A program made the position numbers and the translations under genes. A stretch of 8,178 nt of DNA from Candidatus Auribacterota bacterium (GTDB lineage: Bacteria > Auribacterota > UBA6266), in the NCBI GenBank assembly GCA_023136205.1, contig JAGLRQ010000154.1, positions 1-8,178 of the forward strand. The letters run 5' to 3'. This document shows positions 1-8,178 of this stretch, one piece after another. Numbering within the stretch: position 1 is the first letter of the stretch; every line of letters begins with the position of its first letter. Below the pieces are notes generated by a model. The model saw only the letters and a program-made list of their open reading frames with translations. It had not been told where the DNA came from and did not search any database.

Positions 1-20
1 GCTCATAAAAACACCTGCCT

Positions 21-818
21 CTATCTTTTAAAACTCTCTTTAGCTCTTCTTCTGATTTTTGTTAAAGAATCCCTTGAGAAACGCGGGTTTTTTCTTCTGC
101 CATTTTTTAAATAGCTGCTTTTCACCAAACGCAGGTACCCTTTTATAACCTGTAACAAAGAGGGGAAAGAAACTGCCTTGGATGTTTGATTCGCTCTTAA
201 ACCGAGCCTATAGGGAACCTCCGCGAAAAGATAACCTTTTTTTACAACTCTTATTAAAATATCCGTCTGGAAGAAAAACCCTCCTTCTCTATGATTCAAA
301 TCCTTTAAAATCGATTTTCGATAAAGAATCGTACCATTCGTATAATTTAGATTAACTAAAAATGTTGTATTAATTATAAAACGGTAAACAAAGGAGAGCG
401 CGTTTCGAAATAATGACCTTACCTCTTTATTAAAAACAAAAGGCACAACAATATCTACATGTTTAAGAAGTTCGTGATACCGAAAAATCTCCCATGGATC
501 ATTTTCATTGTCTCCGGGAAGCATAATAACTACATCACCGGAAGCATTGTCAACTCCTTCCCAGAAGGATGCTCCTATACCACAGGGCACATCATGCTGA
601 ATCATATTAACAGGTTTCCCCTCTTCGATTACCCCATCAACCAATTCTCCTGTTCTATCCATACTTCCATCGTTAACAACAATAATTTCACCTGTCATAC
701 TAAAATATTCAAAAGCTTTTAACACATTATCAACGGCGGGTAAAATATTTGCCTCTTCATTAAGAGCCGGCATAATAACACTGATTTCGGGTTTATTCCA
801 GAATCTCATTTTTTTCAT
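21..818 (-). CDS. Family-2 glycosyltransferase (DPM1 / polyprenyl-phosphate glycosyltransferase-like), 265 aa
   Basis: The N-terminus 'ISVIMPALNEEANILPAV...GEIIVVNDGSMDRTGELV' is the classic GT-A/GT2 nucleotide-sugar binding signature. An acidic 'PGDNENDP' segment sits where the DxD-type motif is expected. A GGAG Shine-Dalgarno lies about 8 nt upstream of the ATG at 818. The gene starts 21 nt downstream of the preceding gene. Confidence 0.85.
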   Translation of the reverse strand: MKKMRFWNKPEISVIMPALNEEANILPAVDNVLKAFEYFSMTGEIIVVNDGSMDRTGELVDGVIEEGKPVNMIQHDVPCGIGASFWEGVDNASGDVVIMLPGDNENDPWEIFRYHELLKHVDIVVPFVFNKEVRSLFRNALSFVYRFIINTTFLVNLNYTNGTILYRKSILKDLNHREGGFFFQTDILIRVVKKGYLFAEVPYRLGLRANQTSKAVSFPSLLQVIKGYLRLVKSSYLKNGRRKNPRFSRDSLTKIRRRAKESFKR

Positions 819-839
819 ACAATACTCTCCGCGCCCCGA

Positions 840-1331
840 TTAAACACGCATGTACCCCGCTCCGGCATCCTTAATCCATTCATCAACTAATACGTTAAAA
901 GGTTTTTCATTAGAATAGGGGTTATAAACTTTCAAGTTTATTAATTTCATAATACTTATATCATCACTCCCGCAACAATGTGAAAGCCCAAGAAATTCAA
1001 AATAATTGTTAACTCCGTTTCCAATAAATTTCACATTGAGGTTTTGCAAAACAACATCATTTCTGATTTGTTCAAGCGCCCTGAAAACCAGAAAATTTAC
1101 TATTGAGTACACTATAGGTATTAAACCGCTCATACTCATCCCGGCAGCAATCCCCACCGTCCCTTGCTCCATAATACCGCAGTTGATTACCCTCTCAGGG
1201 AATTCATCTTTCATATTGTCAACAGCACCAAAGCCCATATCACATATTAAAAGGCGGTACCGTTCATCCTTACGAAAATATGGGATGATATAATTTAAGA
1301 TGTCTTTTCTAAAATTAGCTGTATCAGTCAT
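840..1331 (-). CDS. Transketolase-like subunit B, pyrimidine-binding (Pyr) domain only, 163 aa (truncated relative to usual split-transketolase C-terminal subunits)
   Basis: 'EFPERVINCGIMEQGTVGIAAGMSMSGLIPIVYSIVNFLVFRALEQIRNDVVLQNLNVKFIG' matches the transketolase/DXS Pyr-domain core (FP.R..n.GIaEQ..vg.AaG.a..G..P...t...F..Ra.eQIRn). It ends at '..GYMRV', where the usual 'vYiRl' ends the Pyr domain. Its ATG overlaps the upstream subunit's stop by 8 nt (1324-1331). Confidence 0.75.
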   Translation of the reverse strand: MTDTANFRKDILNYIIPYFRKDERYRLLICDMGFGAVDNMKDEFPERVINCGIMEQGTVGIAAGMSMSGLIPIVYSIVNFLVFRALEQIRNDVVLQNLNVKFIGNGVNNYFEFLGLSHCCGSDDISIMKLINLKVYNPYSNEKPFNVLVDEWIKDAGAGYMRV

Positions 1332-2130
1332 AGGTTTTTCCCATAGTTAATTCTTCTTTCGTTGGAACGCGAAAGTGAAATTTCGGCACATTCTCCATGC
1401 ATTTCAAACCAAACCCCTTCACTGTCGCGGCAACAATTACTTTCGGTTTGTTTTCCAGTGAAGATTTTGCCGCATGGATAGAATGGGTAAGTTTAATAAC
1501 ATCATGCCCCGGACATACAACAGGCGACAGGCCGAACCCGCGCAATTTCTTAATCAGGCCGTCTTTTTCTTTATCTAGAATATTTATAACAAAATCCATT
1601 GCCTGAAGACGGTTGTAATCAACAATAATGGTAAGATTTTTCACCTCATGTTTAACCGCAAACTGCAGTGCTTCCCATGTTGTTCCTTCCTGTAGCTCTC
1701 CATCTCCAACAATACAAAATGTATGGTAGTCTTTTCCTCGCGTTCGCGCTCCAAAAGCAAGGCCGACGGCAATCGGCAAACCGTGTCCAAGGGAACCGCA
1801 CCCTCCCTCAAGCCCGTATTCAACTTTTCGTTCCACGCATCCCGGCAGAATACTTCTTTCTGTATAAAAATCTTCCCACTCTTTCTTAGGGAAAATCCCC
1901 TTATCAGCCAGAATCGCGTAAAGAGCGTAACAGCCGTGCGCTTTTGAAAAAATTAATCTATCTCTCTCTTCCCATAAAGGATTTTCAGGTTCATATGTCA
2001 TAGCGTTATAATATAAAGCAACAAGTATATCAACACACGACAACGAAGGAGCAATGTGTCCGGCACCACGGCGGACAGCAACCCTTATGACTTCATCCCT
2101 GATATAATTCGCTTTTTTTAGTAAATCCAT
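1324..2130 (-). CDS. Transketolase subunit A, thiamine-diphosphate (PP) binding domain, 268 aa
   Basis: 'GAGHIAPSLSCVDILVALYY', 'SKAHGCYALYAILA' and 'GSLGHGLPIAVGLA' are transketolase-type motifs. The ThDP motif 'GDGELQEGTTWEA...IIVDYN' (GDG-x(n)-N) is present. The length is typical of the N-terminal half of split transketolases. Confidence 0.85.
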   Translation of the reverse strand: MDLLKKANYIRDEVIRVAVRRGAGHIAPSLSCVDILVALYYNAMTYEPENPLWEERDRLIFSKAHGCYALYAILADKGIFPKKEWEDFYTERSILPGCVERKVEYGLEGGCGSLGHGLPIAVGLAFGARTRGKDYHTFCIVGDGELQEGTTWEALQFAVKHEVKNLTIIVDYNRLQAMDFVINILDKEKDGLIKKLRGFGLSPVVCPGHDVIKLTHSIHAAKSSLENKPKVIVAATVKGFGLKCMENVPKFHFRVPTKEELTMGKTYD

Positions 2131-2177
2131 TTTAAAAGCCGTATGAGGACTATAGTCTGCGTCCTATCCTATTTTTT

Positions 2178-3245
2178 TTAAATAAAATTTACATGTTCGG
2201 GAGTATTTTTCAGGCTCCAAAGATACCTGTTTACTTCATCCATCCGGCAATTCACCCTGCACCGGGAAGCATCCAATTCCTCTTCTACCCAACGGAGCGA
2301 CTTTAATCGTTTTTCCCCCTCCCATATTTGCCGGAAAGATTGTTCATATATATTTCCATATAAAAACCGCTCATCACTCAGATAAACACTGCATCCCCAG
2401 ACATTGCCGCCGGCATCAATGTAGGACCAGAAGGGCAGCGCGAGGCAACGGTTATAATTCCGTTTCCCCTCGTCCCACTTCTTCATAGTATGTACCCTGA
2501 ATACAACATTAAACTCGTTTGTATTGAAATTTTCCAGTTCGCCGGCAAGATGTTCATAATCATTGTATTTAACAGAACTATATTTAGTTGTTTTGCTTTG
2601 AGGATGCTGCGAATACGGTTTTATAACCAGATAATCCATGCCAATGTCCCGGGCAAGTTTTGCCAGAGGCACTGCTTCGTGACAATTTTCCGGCAATAAT
2701 AAGAGCTGCATACCTAAAGTGCAGGAATAATTATTTTCTTTCCTCGTTTTTACTGCATAGGACATGTTTTCAATCACACGATTAAAATCAGCGGCATCAC
2801 AGCGATGAATTTTCGCGTAAGTATCACATGCCGCTCCATTAATACTTACTTTAAGCCACTCGATACTGCCAAGAATTCTATCTGCAATTTCTCCTTTAAA
2901 TAAGACACCGTTGGTTGTCACTGCCGCATCAATACCAGACTCTTTCGTATAATTAACTATTTCCGCCATATCACAATGTAAAAACGGCTCGCCTTCACCA
3001 GCATACATAATACTTTTGAGCCCAAGTTTTCCCAGCTCCGAAAGCCTTTCTTTAAACAAACCGGTATCAAGACACCTCGGCTCATAATCCATAAAATCCA
3101 GTCCGCAATATAAACACCGGTGATTGCAGGCGCCTGCCGGGCTAACCTCCATGTATATAGGATAGATTATTTTACCCTCCGACCACTCGCTTACCCGTGA
3201 AGGATGGTAAATGAGCTTATGGCTGTCTATTGAGTATTTGTCCAT
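2178..3245 (-). CDS. Radical SAM enzyme with a SPASM/twitch-like C-terminal auxiliary-cluster domain, 355 aa
   Basis: The CxxxCxxC motif 'CNHRCLYCG' (C40/C44/C47, nt 3105-3128) is followed by a 'YAGEGEPFL' (GGEP-like) SAM-binding motif. The C-terminus 'CLALPFWSYIDAGGNVWGC...YGNIYEQSFRQIWEG...CRVNC' fits the C-x(n)-G-x4-C ... C-x3-C pattern of SPASM/twitch domains (nt about 2247-2447). There is no N-terminal cobalamin-binding domain. An AGGA Shine-Dalgarno lies upstream of the ATG at 3245. Confidence 0.85.
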   Translation of the reverse strand: MDKYSIDSHKLIYHPSRVSEWSEGKIIYPIYMEVSPAGACNHRCLYCGLDFMDYEPRCLDTGLFKERLSELGKLGLKSIMYAGEGEPFLHCDMAEIVNYTKESGIDAAVTTNGVLFKGEIADRILGSIEWLKVSINGAACDTYAKIHRCDAADFNRVIENMSYAVKTRKENNYSCTLGMQLLLLPENCHEAVPLAKLARDIGMDYLVIKPYSQHPQSKTTKYSSVKYNDYEHLAGELENFNTNEFNVVFRVHTMKKWDEGKRNYNRCLALPFWSYIDAGGNVWGCSVYLSDERFLYGNIYEQSFRQIWEGEKRLKSLRWVEEELDASRCRVNCRMDEVNRYLWSLKNTPEHVNFI

Positions 3246-3816
3246 TCTTTATTCCTATAACCATATCAACAAAACAGTGGCAAATGGAAAGGTGAACTGC
3301 TTCTACATAACCGTATTCCGATGCCGGTACATAAAAATTAATATCCCCTAAACTGCTCAGAGAATTATTTTTCTTAAATCCTGAAAGGGTTATCACTTTA
3401 ACATTCTTTTTTTTCGCCGCGAGTACTCCGGATAAAATATTATCGGATTGGCCCGAACTACTGATGGCAATTAAAATATCGCCCCTGTCGGCAAACATAT
3501 CAATCGGTTTTTCAAATACATGTTTATATCCATAATCGTTGCTAATACAGGTTAAGAGAGTGCTGTCATTAAAAGTAAGCGCCCGTATGCCCGCGTTTTT
3601 CCAGAAATCGGCCGCTATATGGCTGGAGATAGAAGCACTCGCGCCATTGCCAATTAAAAAAAGTTTTTTGCCCGAAGCTGCCTGATCAATAATCATACGT
3701 ATTGACATATCCATAGCTTCATCAAACTGATATACTTCACCATTCGCGCCGACAGCACTAATCTTGCTGAACAAACTTTTCAGGGTTAAAAAATATTCTT
3801 TTACAACTTGCCTCAT
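3217..3816 (-). CDS. SIS-domain sugar-phosphate isomerase, GmhA (sedoheptulose-7-phosphate isomerase)-like, 199 aa
   Basis: It aligns by eye along its whole length with E. coli GmhA: 'KKLFLIGNGASASISSHIAADF' vs '[22 protein letters not shown]'; 'ISNDYGYKHVFEKPIDMFADRGDILIAISSSGQSDNIL..AAKKKNVKVITLSG' vs '[52 protein letters not shown]'. Its ATG overlaps the upstream stop as ATGA (3813-3816). Confidence 0.8.
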   Translation of the reverse strand: MRQVVKEYFLTLKSLFSKISAVGANGEVYQFDEAMDMSIRMIIDQAASGKKLFLIGNGASASISSHIAADFWKNAGIRALTFNDSTLLTCISNDYGYKHVFEKPIDMFADRGDILIAISSSGQSDNILSGVLAAKKKNVKVITLSGFKKNNSLSSLGDINFYVPASEYGYVEAVHLSICHCFVDMVIGIKNGQILNRQP

Positions 3817-5348
3817 TTTAACAGCCTCGTAATATATTTAATCAAGTCCACAAATTTGACAGGTTCTCTGTTGCAGACTATCTGAACAGCCAGCGAACCC
3901 ACCGCGTTTCCGACAAAAGAAACTAAATCCTGAGGCAAACCCGCGGAAAAACACGGCGCGACAAAAGCAAAAAAAGCGTCTCCCGCTCCAATCGCGTCTA
4001 CAACACGGTACGCGAAAGCCGGCGTTTCATGATACCCGGCTGTTTCACAATAACTCAAAGAACCGTGCGGCCCGCGGGTAGCAATCACTTGCTGACATTT
4101 AAGGTCATGATACACTTTCCTGGCAAGCGTCCGCAGGTCGCTAAATTTATCATGCGTAGCAAAACGCAGTTCCATTTCATCAACACAAACACAATTCACG
4201 CGCGGATATTTAGTCACAAGATTAAATCCGATATTCGCGCTATTCGTCTGCACGTTCAAAGCAAGATATTTTGCCTTAGCGCAAATAAGGTCAATAATCC
4301 GCTTTGTCAGCAGGCCGTGTCCAAAATCCGAAACAACAACCAGATCGTAATTCTCAATTGTTTTTTCAATCTGTTTTAATATCCTTGTTTCAATACGCCC
4401 GAAAATACTATCATCTTTCATATAACAAATCTCAAACAGTTTTCTGTTTGAATCTTTATTAACAAATCTTCTTTTTATAATGGTTCCAACATCGGGCCTA
4501 TAGAAAAAAACAGGAGTAATGTTAGGACTTAACCGGCTTTTAATAAAATCATTTAAAGAATCTTCATCTTCCTTGCCCAGCATAGTCAATAAATCAACCT
4601 GTTTACAAAGGTTGGCTATGTTGTTAGCTGTCGCCAGAGTGCCGCCTGCGAACGTTTCCTCAGAATCATATCTATTAGCGACCAAATGCTCTTTTGAAGA
4701 TTTCCCCATCGGTGTACAGTAATGGTACTGGTCAATAATAGCATCCCCGATCACCAGCACTTTCAGATCTTTAAGCAAACACAGTTTTTCAGTTATAAAA
4801 TCTATGGAATATTTCTTACCAATCGCTTTTAGATATTTAACAGTTCTTGGCGGATAAACATCCAGATATTTATTGAGTAATTTTGAAGAACTGAAGGTAA
4901 TATCATCGGTAAATACCAGCCGTCCGCCAACAGTCTTCACGGCTTCCTCTTCTTCTGAAATTTTACCGGTTATATCCCCTTCTTTTTTTCTGTATTCACT
5001 GCCCTTCACATAGAAATCCGGTTTCAAAATCCCCAGGCATTCAATAGCAGTCGGCGAATCAATAATACTCACATAATCTGTAACAGCAAGAGACGCAAGC
5101 GCTTCTGCCCGCAGATGCTCATTGAAAACCGGCCGTCCCGGCCCCCTCTTAACATGTTTATCCTTTGTAATTGTAACAATAAGAATATCACCGTGCTTTT
5201 TAGCTAACTTGAAATGGCGGATATGCCCCAGGTGCAAAAGATCAAATACACCATGGCAATGAACTATTTTTTTGCCCTTAGTCTTAAGTTTCGAGCACAC
5301 CCCTCCTAACTTTTCTACTTTAACAATTTTCCTATGGATATCTTCCAT
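3813..5348 (-). CDS. Bifunctional sugar-phosphate nucleotidyltransferase (cytidylyltransferase fold, HldE domain II-like, N-terminal) + PfkB-family sugar kinase (HldE domain I-like, C-terminal), about 511 aa
   Basis: The N-terminal half 'HGVFDLLHLGHIRHF...GDILIVTITKDKHVKRGPGRPV...YVKGSEY' matches the HxGH nucleotidyltransferase of HldE/RfaE domain II. The C-terminal half 'VLVIGDAIIDQYHYC', 'GGTLATANNIANL' and 'DAIGAGDAF' (nt 3972-3989) match the PfkB ribokinase-like kinase. The ORF track starts at a GTG at 5426. I prefer the ATG at 5348 (M27, 'MEDIHRK'), which has an AAGGA Shine-Dalgarno (5356-5360) 7 nt upstream and a promoter-like element inside the 5349-5426 extension. Confidence 0.85.
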   Translation of the reverse strand: MEDIHRKIVKVEKLGGVCSKLKTKGKKIVHCHGVFDLLHLGHIRHFKLAKKHGDILIVTITKDKHVKRGPGRPVFNEHLRAEALASLAVTDYVSIIDSPTAIECLGILKPDFYVKGSEYRKKEGDITGKISEEEEAVKTVGGRLVFTDDITFSSSKLLNKYLDVYPPRTVKYLKAIGKKYSIDFITEKLCLLKDLKVLVIGDAIIDQYHYCTPMGKSSKEHLVANRYDSEETFAGGTLATANNIANLCKQVDLLTMLGKEDEDSLNDFIKSRLSPNITPVFFYRPDVGTIIKRRFVNKDSNRKLFEICYMKDDSIFGRIETRILKQIEKTIENYDLVVVSDFGHGLLTKRIIDLICAKAKYLALNVQTNSANIGFNLVTKYPRVNCVCVDEMELRFATHDKFSDLRTLARKVYHDLKCQQVIATRGPHGSLSYCETAGYHETPAFAYRVVDAIGAGDAFFAFVAPCFSAGLPQDLVSFVGNAVGSLAVQIVCNREPVKFVDLIKYITRLLK

Positions 5349-5396
5349 TTTTAGTTCCTTTACGGGCCGTTGGCAATGTAGAACATTTAAAACAAA

Positions 5397-5425
5397 ATAA
5401 TAGCTAAATTGTTCATAATTGTCCA
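5397..5425 (-). promoter_or_regulatory. Putative sigma-70-type promoter for the minus-strand sugar operon: TGGACA (-35) - 17 nt - TATTAT (-10)
   Basis: Read on the minus strand, the sequence is TGGACAattatgaacaatttagcTATTAT (plus coordinates: -35 at 5420-5425, -10 at 5397-5402). Each hexamer is one mismatch from consensus and the spacer is the optimal 17 nt. The element lies about 45 nt upstream of the preferred ATG at 5348. The host sigma-factor specificity is unknown. Confidence 0.4.
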
Positions 5426-5506
5426 CAAAATGAAAGAATAAAAACCATGGGATTGCGGATCACAATTTGAAGAGGAGCAGTAACCTGCACAAGATCAAAA
5501 AAACAC

Positions 5507-5535
5507 TTGCGCATTTCTCATAATCCCATTATAGA
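5507..5535 (+). promoter_or_regulatory. Possible promoter for the SGNH gene: TTGCGC (-35) - 17 nt - TATAGA (-10), ending 6 nt before the ATG
   Basis: The sequence is TTGCGCatttctcataatcccatTATAGA, followed by tatagcATG. No Shine-Dalgarno is visible upstream of the ATG at 5542, and an in-frame TAA at 5521 excludes any upstream start. The geometry would give a leaderless or nearly leaderless transcript. The hexamer matches are weak. Confidence 0.25.
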
Positions 5536-5541
5536 TATAGC

Positions 5542-6690
5542 ATGACACCTTTTAAAAGAAATGTAAGCTCTCCCTTTTTCAACGCGTTAGTTCGCTTCGG
5601 CTTGTTGTGCCTTTCATTATGCGTTTCAATTGTCCTGATGGAAACAATACTACGCGTGTTTTACCCACAGCAACTGACATTCCGAAGAGAAAACAAATAC
5701 ACTGTAAGCCAATGCCTTGAAAACTGGAAAGGGGTTGTTAGATCGAATGAATATAATACCAAACTTGAATTTAACAACCGGGGGTTAAGAGGAGAGCTTG
5801 TTCCCTATCAGAGGCAAATGCCTTCTCTGCGGGTGTTTTTTTCAGGTGATTCTTTTGTAGAAGCCGCGCAGGTTGAGTTGAATAACCACTTCAGCAGGCT
5901 CACAAAGGAAATTCTGACTCAAAAGAACAACAAAAAAACAGAAACTGTTACCTGCGGCGTGGGAGGATGGGACAATGTACAACAGTTAATTTACCTGAAA
6001 AACGAGGCATATAAATACAGCCCTGATTATTTTCTTTTATTTGTATATCCCGGGAATGATATTAATGGAAATTATGGAAGATACTACAAGGAAAACCTTA
6101 AACAGTATATTAATAGAAGGGATCTTAATCTTCTCTACAGATCCACGCGGAAAGAGAATCTGTTTCTACGGCTTAAAGAATATTTGCTTTCTCACTCGCA
6201 CATTTTTACTCTTTTTAAAATTTCTCTGGAAAAAACAAAAACAAAAAGCTCTTTTGAGAAAATACAGCGGGCACTTAAGATGATAAACATCCCTGAAAAG
6301 TCTTCCAAAAATGTAACCATGGATACACAAACAACAATAGAGAAATCGTGGGAATTATTTGAATTTTTAATGAAAGATTTTTCCCTGTTCTGTGAAGAAC
6401 AGAATATTAATTTCGCGGTGGCAGTCATCCCTCATATTAATCAGATTTACTTTGATCGTTACCCCGAACAGTATAAAAAGATAGCGCGAAACCGCTGGGG
6501 CAAACCCGATGGATATTCAAAAACAATCGGCATTTTAAAACAGAATAATATTAATGTAATCGATCTATATCCCGGGTTACTAAAAAATAAAGAGCACAAT
6601 GTATATTTTCATGGAGACATGCACTGGACCCCCGAGGGACATCGTGTTGTCGCGGGCATAATAGCAGAGTATTTGCTTTCTGATATATAA
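5542..6690 (+). CDS. Membrane-anchored SGNH/GDSL-type hydrolase or polysaccharide O-acyltransferase/esterase (AlgX/AlgJ/DHHW-like C-terminal motif), 382 aa
   Basis: There is an N-terminal hydrophobic anchor 'FFNALVRFGLLCLSLCVSIVLMETIL'. SGNH blocks are present in canonical order: 'FFSGDSFVEA' (GDS, nt 5845-5853), 'CGVGGWD', 'YPGNDING' (GxND) and 'HGDMHWTPEGHRVVA' (D-x-H-W, nt 6616-6627). It is the only plus-strand gene in the window. Confidence 0.7.
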   Translation: MTPFKRNVSSPFFNALVRFGLLCLSLCVSIVLMETILRVFYPQQLTFRRENKYTVSQCLENWKGVVRSNEYNTKLEFNNRGLRGELVPYQRQMPSLRVFFSGDSFVEAAQVELNNHFSRLTKEILTQKNNKKTETVTCGVGGWDNVQQLIYLKNEAYKYSPDYFLLFVYPGNDINGNYGRYYKENLKQYINRRDLNLLYRSTRKENLFLRLKEYLLSHSHIFTLFKISLEKTKTKSSFEKIQRALKMINIPEKSSKNVTMDTQTTIEKSWELFEFLMKDFSLFCEEQNINFAVAVIPHINQIYFDRYPEQYKKIARNRWGKPDGYSKTIGILKQNNINVIDLYPGLLKNKEHNVYFHGDMHWTPEGHRVVAGIIAEYLLSDI

Positions 6691-6705
6691 AAATAATTTG
6701 TTTTT

Positions 6706-7713
6706 TTATTTTTCCAAATACTTAAACCAGTCTTTTGTAGCTTCCTCAATTTCCTTTGGTGTCCACACAGGAGCATCCTTCCAGCAGTCGATGTTATCCA
6801 GTAAAATTTTTACCCCTTCCTCAAAACTTACGTTCGGCTTCCAGTTTAATACCTTTTGTATTTTGGATATGTCAGCAAAAGTGCATTCCGGTTCGCCGGG
6901 CCGCTTTGGAATATAGGCCACTTCTCCTTTTAAAAGTTTTACAAGGGTATTTACGCTATAAGTGTCACCGCTGCCCACATTAAAAATTTCACCGGACACA
7001 CCCGACATAGCCGCGTTTATAAAAGCCTCAACTACATCAGTCACAAAGGTAAAATCACGCCTTTGGGTACCGTCACCCACAACGGTAAAAGGTTTACCAG
7101 CTAACTTTTGAGCTAAAAACACACCGAAAACCGCCCCATATGTGCCCGATGTCCGCGACCTGGGCCCGTAAACATTAAATAAACGCAAGGAAACAACCGG
7201 AAGCTTATAGATCTTTCCCCAGTGCAAAGCAATCTGCTCACCCAGATGCTTAGTAAGAGCATAGGGATATTCCGGACGAATTTCAGCATTTTCAGCAGTG
7301 GGACAGCAGTCAGGAATACCATAACAGGAAGAAGAAGCCGTATAGAGAAATTTTTTCAGGTTCGGCGACATTTCACGCGCGGCTTCTAAAACACTTATGG
7401 TTCCATCAACATTTGCCCTGTGATAAGACAAGGGATTGACAATCGATGGAACAATATCAGCCAGTGCCGCCATATGAAAAACATAAGATACACCCTTGAA
7501 ATATTTCTTTATACCGGCAATATCATTAACATCCGCTTCCACTAACTCAAAATTTTTATTTTCCTTAAAAGAAGCCAGGTTTTCTATTCTGCCGGTGGAC
7601 AAATTATCTATAGCTACAACATAACAACCGTTTTTCAATAAAGTTTCCGCCAAATGACTGCCGATAAATCCGGCGCCGCCGGTTACTATACACTTAACTA
7701 AATTAGTCTTCAT
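6706..7713 (-). CDS. NAD-dependent nucleotide-sugar epimerase (extended SDR, GalE/WbpP-like rather than 4,6-dehydratase-like), 335 aa
   Basis: It has the Rossmann motif 'VTGGAGFIGSHL', the catalytic 'ASSSCYG' Ser region without the Asp-Glu pair of 4,6-dehydratases, the YxxxK motif 'YALTK', and 'LFNVYGPR' and 'GDGTQRRDFTFVTDVV'. The ORF track's TTG start at 7842 adds 43 non-homologous residues. The ATG at 7713 ('MKTNLVKCIVTGGAG') has GGAGG 9 nt upstream and overlaps the upstream gene's end by 11 nt. Confidence 0.85.
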   Translation of the reverse strand: MKTNLVKCIVTGGAGFIGSHLAETLLKNGCYVVAIDNLSTGRIENLASFKENKNFELVEADVNDIAGIKKYFKGVSYVFHMAALADIVPSIVNPLSYHRANVDGTISVLEAAREMSPNLKKFLYTASSSCYGIPDCCPTAENAEIRPEYPYALTKHLGEQIALHWGKIYKLPVVSLRLFNVYGPRSRTSGTYGAVFGVFLAQKLAGKPFTVVGDGTQRRDFTFVTDVVEAFINAAMSGVSGEIFNVGSGDTYSVNTLVKLLKGEVAYIPKRPGEPECTFADISKIQKVLNWKPNVSFEEGVKILLDNIDCWKDAPVWTPKEIEEATKDWFKYLEK

Positions 7714-8178
7714 CCTTGCCCGCCTCCGCATGTTTTGTATTCCAGGCCAACCGGGGCCGCACAACACCAATCCAGGTGCCAAAAAACTCCTTACGCATCT
7801 CACCTGAATCATAAACGTGAAATGACACCGCGTAATCTTCAAGGACCTGGGTGTCAGATACCCCCCTGCCTACAATAGCTGTAACACTATACAATCCTTC
7901 ATTTAGAAAATTGCCGGGAATACGGCAAACAGACTGAAAAAGGCCCGCAGGATAAGAACGTCCGCTCCAGGGATCAGCCGTCAAGGAAATTGATTTGTGA
8001 TTGGTTGACGCGAGCACAAACGTACCTGTCTGATCCCTTAACCAAATCGCGGGGTAAAGCAACGCTCCTTCCTGTAAATTCCAATAGCTGATCTGAATAA
8101 GTATTTCTTTTGAAATATCTACATCTGCCACAGGGCCCTCAATATCCTCCTGTAGAATACGAACCGCGTGTAAACGGA
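7703..8178 (-). CDS. 3' end of a polysaccharide ABC-transporter ATP-binding protein (Wzt/TagH-like); only the C-terminal beta-sandwich, Wzt_C-type domain is in the window (partial CDS)
   Basis: The reading frame stays open from the listed GTG (8131) up to the window edge ('RLHAVRILQEDIEGP' upstream). The pattern 'V.I......G......I...E.L.I.I.Y.......L...I.....G..V..T.......L.......G.....C.IP...L..G.Y.V...V........VLED....F.V' resembles the C-terminal carbohydrate-binding domain of O-antigen ABC-transporter ATPases. The nucleotide-binding domain would lie beyond position 8178. Confidence 0.6.
   Translation of the reverse strand, partial: RLHAVRILQEDIEGPVADVDISKEILIQISYWNLQEGALLYPAIWLRDQTGTFVLASTNHKSISLTADPWSGRSYPAGLFQSVCRIPGNFLNEGLYSVTAIVGRGVSDTQVLEDYAVSFHVYDSGEMRKEFFGTWIGVVRPRLAWNTKHAEAGKDED

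Follow-up and report, generated by a model that had tools for sequence, protein, structure and literature searches.

Few radical S-adenosylmethionine (SAM) enzymes that tailor sugars have, to our knowledge, been characterised (BtrN, DesII, BlsE, AprD4, HygY and NeoN), and we know of none among them that works with a thiamine diphosphate (ThDP) carboligase or on a heptose nucleotide. Branching of keto-sugar nucleotides is carried out by ThDP enzymes, which are of the E1 type in the case of AviB1-AviB2 and AlmDI-AlmDII and acetolactate-synthase-like in the case of YerE. YerE, a ThDP- and flavin-dependent carbohydrate-modifying enzyme, transfers activated acetaldehyde to ketones (PMC11331486), and DesII acts on a thymidine diphosphate (TDP)-sugar through a C3' alpha-hydroxyalkyl radical, giving a 3-keto sugar by deamination and dehydrogenating TDP-quinovose (PMC11434129). 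The gene analysed here encodes a 355-residue radical SAM protein and lies between a GmhA-like isomerase gene and a split transketolase-like gene of a Candidatus Auribacterota bacterium (assembly GCA_023136205.1, contig JAGLRQ010000154.1, positions 1 to 8,178). This whole stretch of 8,178 nucleotides, called the window below, is identical to a contig of the metagenome-assembled genome GCA_030639325.1. The protein belongs to a genuine, widespread and uncharacterised family of twitch radical SAM enzymes in polysaccharide clusters of the heptose type, and the combination of radical SAM and ThDP enzymes in these clusters suggests an undescribed anaerobic modification of sugars.

A radical SAM protein with one predicted auxiliary cluster

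The product of the open reading frame (ORF) at 2178..3245 is very probably a twitch radical SAM enzyme (Table 1). The Pfam scan gave matches to Radical_SAM (PF04055, 53.1 bits against a gathering threshold of 29.5, residues 35-176) and to SPASM (PF13186, 32.3 bits against 21.5, residues 273-333), and no match to the B12-binding domain PF02310. The initial annotation had also reported no B12-binding domain, and a class B (B12-dependent) methyltransferase was ruled out on this ground. Translation would begin 29 nt within the upstream SIS/GmhA-like ORF (3217..3816), with an AGGA sequence about 10 nt 5' of the start codon, and only about 30 residues precede the cluster motif. We take M1 to be the real start because the N-terminus is conserved in orthologues, in which D2, I6, D7, K10 and H14 are kept. 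The AlphaFold2 model of the protein had a predicted local distance difference test (pLDDT) score of 84 and a predicted template modelling (pTM) score of 0.87.

Conservation was determined on a set of 81 orthologues from species-representative genomes (52-100% identity) and on a distant set of 124 full-length representatives (32-62% identity). The protein has cysteines at positions 40, 44, 47, 58, 91, 140, 149, 175, 188, 267, 285, 329 and 333, and exactly seven of them, C40, C44 and C47 together with C267, C285, C329 and C333, were invariant (100%) in the 81 orthologues, while all the others were variable. The same seven were 97-100% conserved in the 124 distant representatives, with C40, C44 and C47 at 100%. 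A GGE-like motif, GEGEP, at residues 83-87 was also conserved in the 81 orthologues. The spacing C267-x12-G280-x4-C285 matches the CX9-15GX4C signature, and the segment 'YGNIYEQSFRQIW' occupies residues 296-308, between C267-x17-C285 and C329-x3-C333. The CX2C part of the CX2CX5CX3C motif of a full SPASM domain is absent, and only four C-terminal cysteines are conserved. SPASM domains have seven or eight cysteines and two auxiliary clusters, and twitch domains have three or four cysteines and one additional [4Fe-4S] cluster (PMC9477430). By this definition, the four conserved C-terminal cysteines correspond to one extra cluster, so the protein is of the twitch type; a full two-cluster SPASM domain was ruled out by the same count. 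This pattern of conservation indicates that C267, C285, C329 and C333 would bind a single, fully Cys-ligated auxiliary [4Fe-4S] cluster. The initial annotation had read these four residues as a twitch-like auxiliary site, and they proved to be the only C-terminal cysteines conserved in both sets.

No free (non-cluster) cysteine or tyrosine was conserved across both sets. C175 (codon 2721-2723) is a cysteine in 50 of the 81 orthologues and is Ser, Ala, Thr or Val in the other 31; it is replaced in more than half of the representatives taken at 50% identity. The residue at this position co-varied with the type of ThDP partner: in 24 of 24 loci of the transketolase type it is Cys, and 29 of 40 loci of the E1 type have Ser, Ala, Thr or Val. 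Either phylogeny or a role specific to the subtype may lie behind this co-variation. In another homologue (P0174, 631 residues), an intein with an HNH endonuclease sits exactly within the CX3CX2C motif, which reads ...CNHR / CLTGDT...VLVAN / CSFC..., the second cluster cysteine being the +1 splice residue.

Placement and distribution of the family

By its profile scores and its predicted fold, the protein represents a family of its own inside the SPASM/twitch group, nearest to enzymes acting on nucleotide sugars. No curated NCBIfam model reached its cutoff. The best score was that of the tungsten-enzyme maturase W_rSAM_matur (81.7 bits against a cutoff of 380); lower scores were obtained with viperin NF038283 (54.4 against 180), the MoaA models TIGR02668 (50.9 against 325) and TIGR02666 (44.7 against 284), DesII TIGR04426 (36.7 against 450) and BlsE TIGR04466 (31.9 against 400). 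The MftC, PqqE, SCIFF, sactipeptide and anSME families were all below cutoff and scored lower than W_rSAM_matur. Sequence matches in the PDB were weak by phmmer, at 1e-6 for DesII, 3e-6 for BlsE and 4e-5 for 7wzv. A search with the family profile placed BlsE first (8e-10) and also found viperin-like proteins (1e-9), MoaA, CteB, DesII (6e-9) and BtrN (3e-6). The best Foldseek match of the AlphaFold2 model was DesII (E=1e-15, TMq 0.65, about 334 aligned columns), followed by SuiB, SkfB, CteB, BlsE, anSME, viperins and MoaA, among more than 200 radical SAM structures of the PDB at E<=1e-3, in agreement with the partial TIM-barrel fold of the superfamily. Profile and structure comparison, which the initial annotation had named as a check on its reading, gave DesII and BlsE as the nearest enzymes of solved structure.

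The search for homologues returned 5366 sequences at E<=1e-3, so that the ORF and its motifs are far from what chance would produce. The best 120 of these are nearly all exactly 355 residues long and at least 67% identical to the query, and their names, where given, are generic radical SAM names or automatic MoaA-type names (GTP 3',8-cyclase). Representatives at 50% identity numbered 476 when E<=1e-30 was required, and 296 relatives were found in stretches of species-representative genomes. The carriers belong to Omnitrophota, Planctomycetota (including anammox bacteria), Elusimicrobia, Patescibacteria, Nitrospirae, Hydrogenedentes, Lentisphaerae and other phyla, and, among the Deltaproteobacteria/Thermodesulfobacteriota, include Geobacter sp. 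OR-1 and a Pseudodesulfovibrio isolate. The family is large and strongly conserved and occurs in many poorly understood anaerobic phyla, and the full-text literature search found no publication on it or on its gene combination.

Association with ThDP enzymes

A tblastn survey gave 80 loci, of which 67 had enough flanking sequence for comparison and 45 had at least 5 kb on both sides. The gene of a ThDP enzyme subunit lay immediately downstream of the radical SAM gene in 46 of the 67 loci and anywhere in the locus in 58 of them. Among the 45 well-flanked loci, 42 carried a SIS gene, a nucleotidyltransferase-kinase (NT-kinase) gene or a gene of the GT9 heptosyltransferase family, a ThDP enzyme was encoded in 39, and an additional radical SAM gene was present in 39. 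Split transketolases and E1 alpha/beta pairs (PF00676) occur interchangeably as the ThDP partner. The deltaproteobacterial loci, which have neither SIS nor NT-kinase genes, carry radical SAM, E1 alpha, E1 beta, GT2, B12-radical SAM, GT9 and 300-residue radical SAM genes. Because loci of the E1 type occur without SIS and NT-kinase, the ThDP enzyme tracks the radical SAM gene and not the isomerase gene.

In 23 of 25 loci, the SIS stop codon and the radical SAM start codon were spaced by -29 to +14 nt, with -8 being the common value. The overlap of 29 nt with the GmhA-like gene, which the initial annotation had taken as a sign of co-expression, is thus real and peculiar to this organism, while the tight coupling that it represents is conserved. 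The placement of the gene between a heptose isomerase and a transketolase was likewise borne out, except that the transketolase is more than a neighbour: the tightest and most conserved functional partner of the radical SAM enzyme is the ThDP enzyme of carboligase type, not the isomerase.

Gene fusions gave the same partners. Proteins of the radical SAM clade were found fused to a SIS domain (P0126), to a CTP_transf_like domain (P0142, P0155 and P0158) and to a methyltransferase (P0160), and in P0171 the radical SAM domain is preceded by a fused acetolactate-synthase-like ThDP domain. All of these fusion proteins fall in the clade of the protein studied here and not in that of the paralogue described below. 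The ThDP half of P0171 is not a true acetolactate synthase, since it scored 461 bits against a cutoff of 538. The ThDP-radical SAM fusion occurred in seven protein clusters at 48-100% identity; an artefact of gene calling was ruled out by the independence of these clusters. The matches in DPANN archaea covered the ThDP half only. The polysaccharide loci that carry the ThDP fusion also encode a 511-residue NT-kinase, a short-chain dehydrogenase/reductase (SDR), a DegT aminotransferase, a PHP phosphatase, a methyltransferase, SPASM-type and B12-type radical SAM proteins, Wzx and GT4. P0362 joins a related acetolactate-synthase-like ThDP enzyme to a DegT sugar aminotransferase, which argues that this ThDP subfamily takes part in the chemistry of keto-sugar nucleotides.

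Proposed function

The substrate of the radical SAM enzyme is probably a sugar or a nucleotide sugar, as the initial annotation had thought plausible. This is argued by the conserved heptose context, by the fusions to SIS and nucleotidyltransferase domains and by the rank of DesII and BlsE as the closest solved relatives. The best explanation of the whole, to which we give slightly less than an even chance, is that a nucleotide-activated heptose would be converted to a ketone and the ketone handed to the ThDP enzyme. The three interchangeable ThDP architectures (split transketolase, E1 pair and acetolactate-synthase-like domain) share their chemistry at a carbonyl, either C2 addition or cleavage beside it, and on this ground we tentatively propose that the radical SAM enzyme forms the ketone on which its partner would act; the substrate, the ketone and the order of the steps are our reconstruction.

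In the proposed sequence, the GmhA-like isomerase, the HldE-like kinase/nucleotidyltransferase and the SDR would build a nucleotide-activated heptose. The substrate of the radical SAM enzyme would most likely be this nucleoside diphosphate (NDP)-heptose and, less likely, its phosphate precursor. The 5'-deoxyadenosyl radical would take a hydrogen atom from a carbinol carbon of the sugar, and the resulting alpha-hydroxyalkyl radical could become a ketone in one of two ways: the auxiliary cluster could accept an electron from it (dehydrogenation of the BtrN or DesII type), or a neighbouring leaving group could be expelled by beta-elimination (a lyase reaction of the DesII/viperin type). The ketone would pass to the adjacent ThDP enzyme for addition of two carbons (carboligation of the YerE type) or for cleavage beside the carbonyl, and GT2 would then transfer the modified sugar.

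Several points weigh against this proposal. No ThDP enzyme was detectable in 9 of the 67 loci, and a few loci carry only the NT-kinase and the radical SAM gene; given such loci, the radical SAM product must be usable without the ThDP step. The SDR of the cluster could supply the keto group alone, and auxiliary clusters are also found in redox-neutral enzymes. DesII has a single [4Fe-4S] cluster and no auxiliary one, whereas this family has four C-terminal cysteines for a second cluster. The match to BtrN was weak (profile E=3e-6, N-terminal part) and outside the top 50 fold matches, and the pLDDT of our model fell below 50 at residues 329-338, around C329 and C333. The GmhB-type HAD phosphatase motif was absent from 83 of the 84 loci L001-L084, in a regular-expression search by which divergent phosphatases could be missed. 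Because of this absence, the nucleotide sugar actually made may differ from a canonical NDP-heptose, and the elimination route becomes attractive, since the phosphate may remain.

Among the other explanations, the one that survives best, unlikely as we hold it to be, places the radical SAM enzyme later: it would follow the ThDP enzyme or act upon the lipid-linked sugar that GT2 makes, and would rearrange, cyclise, deoxygenate or otherwise tailor a branched or extended sugar, the keto acceptor for the ThDP step being supplied by the SDR. The conserved SDR (55-76% identical) present in many loci is consistent with this order, as is the position of the ThDP domain N-terminal to the radical SAM domain in the fusions, and the further radical SAM enzymes of these loci (paralogous twitch, B12 type and 300-residue type) suggest radical tailoring in several steps. 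However, the deltaproteobacterial loci keep the radical SAM gene and the E1 alpha/beta pair without an SDR, and loci and fusions with only a nucleotidyltransferase and the radical SAM protein place the enzyme near the step of nucleotide activation.

It is improbable that the enzyme is instead an epimerase like HygY or NeoN, inverting one stereocentre of an NDP-heptose, for example as an anaerobic counterpart of the C6-epimerase HldD, with the ThDP enzyme acting independently. Twitch-type sugar epimerases of this kind exist and the heptose context is real, and C175 is at least 90% conserved among the closest 50 sequences. The known HygY/NeoN-type sugar epimerases use the thiol of a conserved cysteine as hydrogen-atom donor, and judged by this feature rather than by comparison with the HygY and NeoN sequences, the family does not fit: C175 varies and no other cysteine or tyrosine is conserved family-wide. 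The adjacency and the fusion to ThDP enzymes would also be left unexplained. The precedents of dehydrogenases and epimerases cited in the initial annotation are therefore unequal, the epimerase option being weakened and dehydrogenation being kept among the routes proposed above.

Slightly less probable again is that the transketolase merely supplies sedoheptulose 7-phosphate to the GmhA-like isomerase and that its position next to the radical SAM gene has no mechanistic meaning. Transketolase is well established as a source of sedoheptulose 7-phosphate in central metabolism, and TktN is most similar to a genuine split-chain transketolase. Yet the E1 alpha/beta pairs and acetolactate-synthase-like domains that replace it elsewhere do not make sedoheptulose 7-phosphate, the ThDP genes persist in loci without SIS and NT-kinase, some radical SAM domains are themselves joined to a ThDP domain, and the beta subunit of 163 residues has no transketolase C-terminal domain. 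A maturase of the anSME or RiPP (ribosomally synthesised and post-translationally modified peptide) type, modifying a neighbouring enzyme or a precursor peptide, is very improbable: SuiB, SkfB, CteB and anSME are among the fold matches and the top NCBIfam match is a tungsten-enzyme maturase, but neither this nor any other maturase or non-carbohydrate family, which the initial annotation had named as what would speak against a sugar substrate, reached its cutoff, no small precursor ORF was found in the operon (intergenic gaps of -29 to +47 nt), the partners span three unrelated ThDP architectures with some loci having none, and the neighbours are all carbohydrate enzymes.

The proposal of a ketone formed by the radical SAM enzyme for its ThDP partner could be carried further. 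The two enzymes might form a dedicated anoxic unit making a new branched or chain-extended (C9 or longer) sugar, in which the radical SAM enzyme would replace an NAD-dependent dehydratase as the source of the ketone, and the product might be a widespread cell-surface sugar of anaerobes (Omnitrophota, anammox Planctomycetes, Elusimicrobia, Geobacter-type Deltaproteobacteria); we regard this extension as doubtful. If true, it would amount to a new route to branched or higher-carbon sugars and would account for a recurrent unannotated block in the polysaccharide gene clusters of uncultured bacteria. The choice of substrate usually limits the assignment of function to radical SAM enzymes, and the ThDP, SIS and nucleotidyltransferase fusions point to those that should be tried first.

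Other genes of the locus

The features of the window are listed in Table 1. On the minus strand, the operon runs in the order HldE-like, GmhA-like SIS, radical SAM, TktN, TktC and GT2, with gaps of -4, -29, +47, -8 and +21 nt, respectively.

Table 1. Coordinates of the genes and motifs of the window, with the basis of each assignment
Feature	Position	Strand	Basis
Radical SAM/twitch-type enzyme (the subject of this work), 355 aa	2178..3245	-	ORF, ATG start; Pfam; AlphaFold2 model; DesII best fold match
CX3CX2C motif C40/C44/C47 (CNHRCLYC), predicted SAM-cleaving [4Fe-4S] site	3105..3128	-	Sequence, conservation
C-terminal twitch-like domain C267-x12-G280-x4-C285 ... C329-x3-C333, predicted to bind one auxiliary [4Fe-4S]	2247..2447	-	SPASM Pfam, Cys conservation
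HldE-like protein, N-terminal nucleotidyltransferase and C-terminal pfkB kinase; likely start ATG 5348, 511 aa	3813..5426	-	Pfam CTP_transf_like, PfkB
GmhA-like SIS sugar-phosphate isomerase, 199 aa	3217..3816	-	Pfam SIS_2; NCBIfam gmhA below cutoff
TktN, N-terminal (PP-domain) subunit of split transketolase-like ThDP enzyme, 268 aa	1324..2130	-	Pfam Transketolase_N, 101 bits
TktC, short Pyr-domain subunit of split transketolase-like enzyme, 163 aa	840..1331	-	Pfam Transket_pyr
GT2 glycosyltransferase, polyprenyl-phosphate-sugar-synthase-like, 265 aa	21..818	-	Pfam Glycos_transf_2
SDR nucleotide-sugar epimerase/dehydratase, 335 aa from ATG 7713	6706..7713	-	Pfam GDP_Man_Dehyd, Epimerase
AlgX-like SGNH protein, putative polysaccharide O-acetyltransferase or esterase	5542-6690	+	Only plus-strand gene
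C-terminal part of a 440-aa Wzt-like ABC transporter ATPase that extends past the window end	7703-8131	-	No Pfam match alone; L001:4221-5543

The scores of the HldE-like protein with the NCBIfam models of HldE and of rfaE domains I and II were all under cutoff, and its two halves matched heptose 7-phosphate kinase (4e84) and an LPS (lipopolysaccharide) core protein (3glv) in the PDB. The GTG start at 5426 given mechanically for this gene is probably wrong; the gene call of the source and the homologues give ATG 5348. A sigma-70-like motif, TTTAAA-17-TATAAT, lies at 5556-5528 on the minus strand. The GmhA-like SIS protein scored 100.3 bits against a cutoff of 209.45 with TIGR00441 and matched phosphoheptose isomerases of the PDB at E=1e-22. 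At the positions that we take to be catalytic or metal-binding in GmhA (H61, E65, Q172 and H180 in E. coli numbering), both histidines are kept, while E65 is replaced by D and Q172 by E. The isomerase may yield a different heptose stereoisomer or use another ketose phosphate. PHP-domain and HAD proteins encoded in the ThDP-fusion loci (P0272, P0276, L085) might replace the missing GmhB-type phosphatase.

The best PDB match of TktN was 6yak, the N component of a split-chain transketolase (E=1.6e-52). TktC has no transketolase C-terminal domain; the form of 162-163 residues is kept in 9 loci and a form of 304-319 residues in 12 others. A truncation artefact was ruled out by this conservation, the short form being a distinct subtype. 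The GT2 protein had weak NCBIfam matches to ArnC, PpgS and dolichyl-P hexose transferase, all below cutoff, and its gene recurs downstream of the ThDP genes in related loci. The SDR scored below cutoff with the LegB, GalE and heptose_epim models, and in related loci its gene usually lies directly upstream of the NT-kinase gene; here the AlgX-like gene sits between the two. The Wzt-like ATPase gene overlaps the SDR start by 11 nt and has an ABC-2 permease gene upstream, which indicates export of the polysaccharide by an ABC transporter.

Beyond the left edge of the window the locus continues with genes for a paralogous twitch radical SAM protein, an SDR, an acetyltransferase-like protein, an aminotransferase, GT2, a methyltransferase and a B12-radical SAM protein, and beyond the right edge with a Wzm/Wzt-type ABC transporter, GT2, a flippase-like protein and a large membrane protein. 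The paralogue (L001:13240-14349, just beyond window position 1) is a twitch radical SAM protein of 369 residues, 30% identical to the 355-residue protein, with which it shares the seven conserved cysteines, the N-terminal 'DxHKL..H' and the C-terminal 'HVNFI'. Many loci of different phyla encode it at 69-76% identity, and its gene usually adjoins that of GT2. The conservation of this second twitch enzyme near GT2 argues that the pathway probably needs two related radical steps. A recurrent pair of genes, for a methyltransferase of 220 residues followed by a radical SAM protein of 361 residues without a SPASM match, was also observed (L006, L010, L013, L020, L032, L041, L062, L071 and others).

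Comparison with known systems

The canonical ADP-/GDP-heptose pathway (GmhA, HldE or HldA/HldC, GmhB and HldD) shares with this locus a GmhA homologue, a pfkB kinase, a nucleotidyltransferase nearest to HldE domains I/II and an SDR. It differs in that all scores obtained here were below the equivalog cutoffs, and in that the nucleotidyltransferase of the fused protein is N-terminal, an inverted domain order.

DesII (TDP-4-amino-4,6-dideoxy-D-glucose ammonia-lyase of the desosamine pathway, PDB 8hzv) is, like the enzyme proposed here, a radical SAM enzyme acting on a nucleotide sugar, and its C-terminal domain consists of a beta-hairpin and helices, as in our protein. The two are only about 16% identical, however, and DesII has an extra N-terminal helical domain that is absent here. 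Its genes belong to a macrolide aminosugar context, whereas ours stand with heptose genes, a ThDP enzyme and GT2. BlsE (cytosylglucuronate decarboxylase, PDB 7vob), the top profile match in the PDB and also a fold match, is a radical SAM enzyme whose sugar substrate is linked to a nucleoside; it differs by its decarboxylation reaction and by its gene context.

Comparison with BtrN (2-deoxy-scyllo-inosamine dehydrogenase, PDB 4m7t), the archetypal twitch enzyme, showed the same composition of a radical SAM core and a short C-terminal domain with four cysteines and one auxiliary cluster. The spacing of the ligands in BtrN is similar (C-x17-C ... C-x2/3-C), and BtrN turns a secondary alcohol of its carbohydrate substrate into a ketone by oxidation, the same chemistry as in our proposal. 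The substrate of BtrN is an aminocyclitol rather than a nucleotide sugar, and no ThDP enzyme is known to work with BtrN.

The pathways of YerE, AviB1-AviB2 and AlmDI-AlmDII share with the proposed one the logic by which a ThDP enzyme gives a two-carbon unit to a keto-sugar nucleotide. In these known pathways an NDP-hexose 4,6-dehydratase supplies the ketone, and none of them is known to involve a radical SAM enzyme, whereas the loci described here always pair the ThDP chemistry with a twitch radical SAM protein and apparently use a heptose as the sugar.

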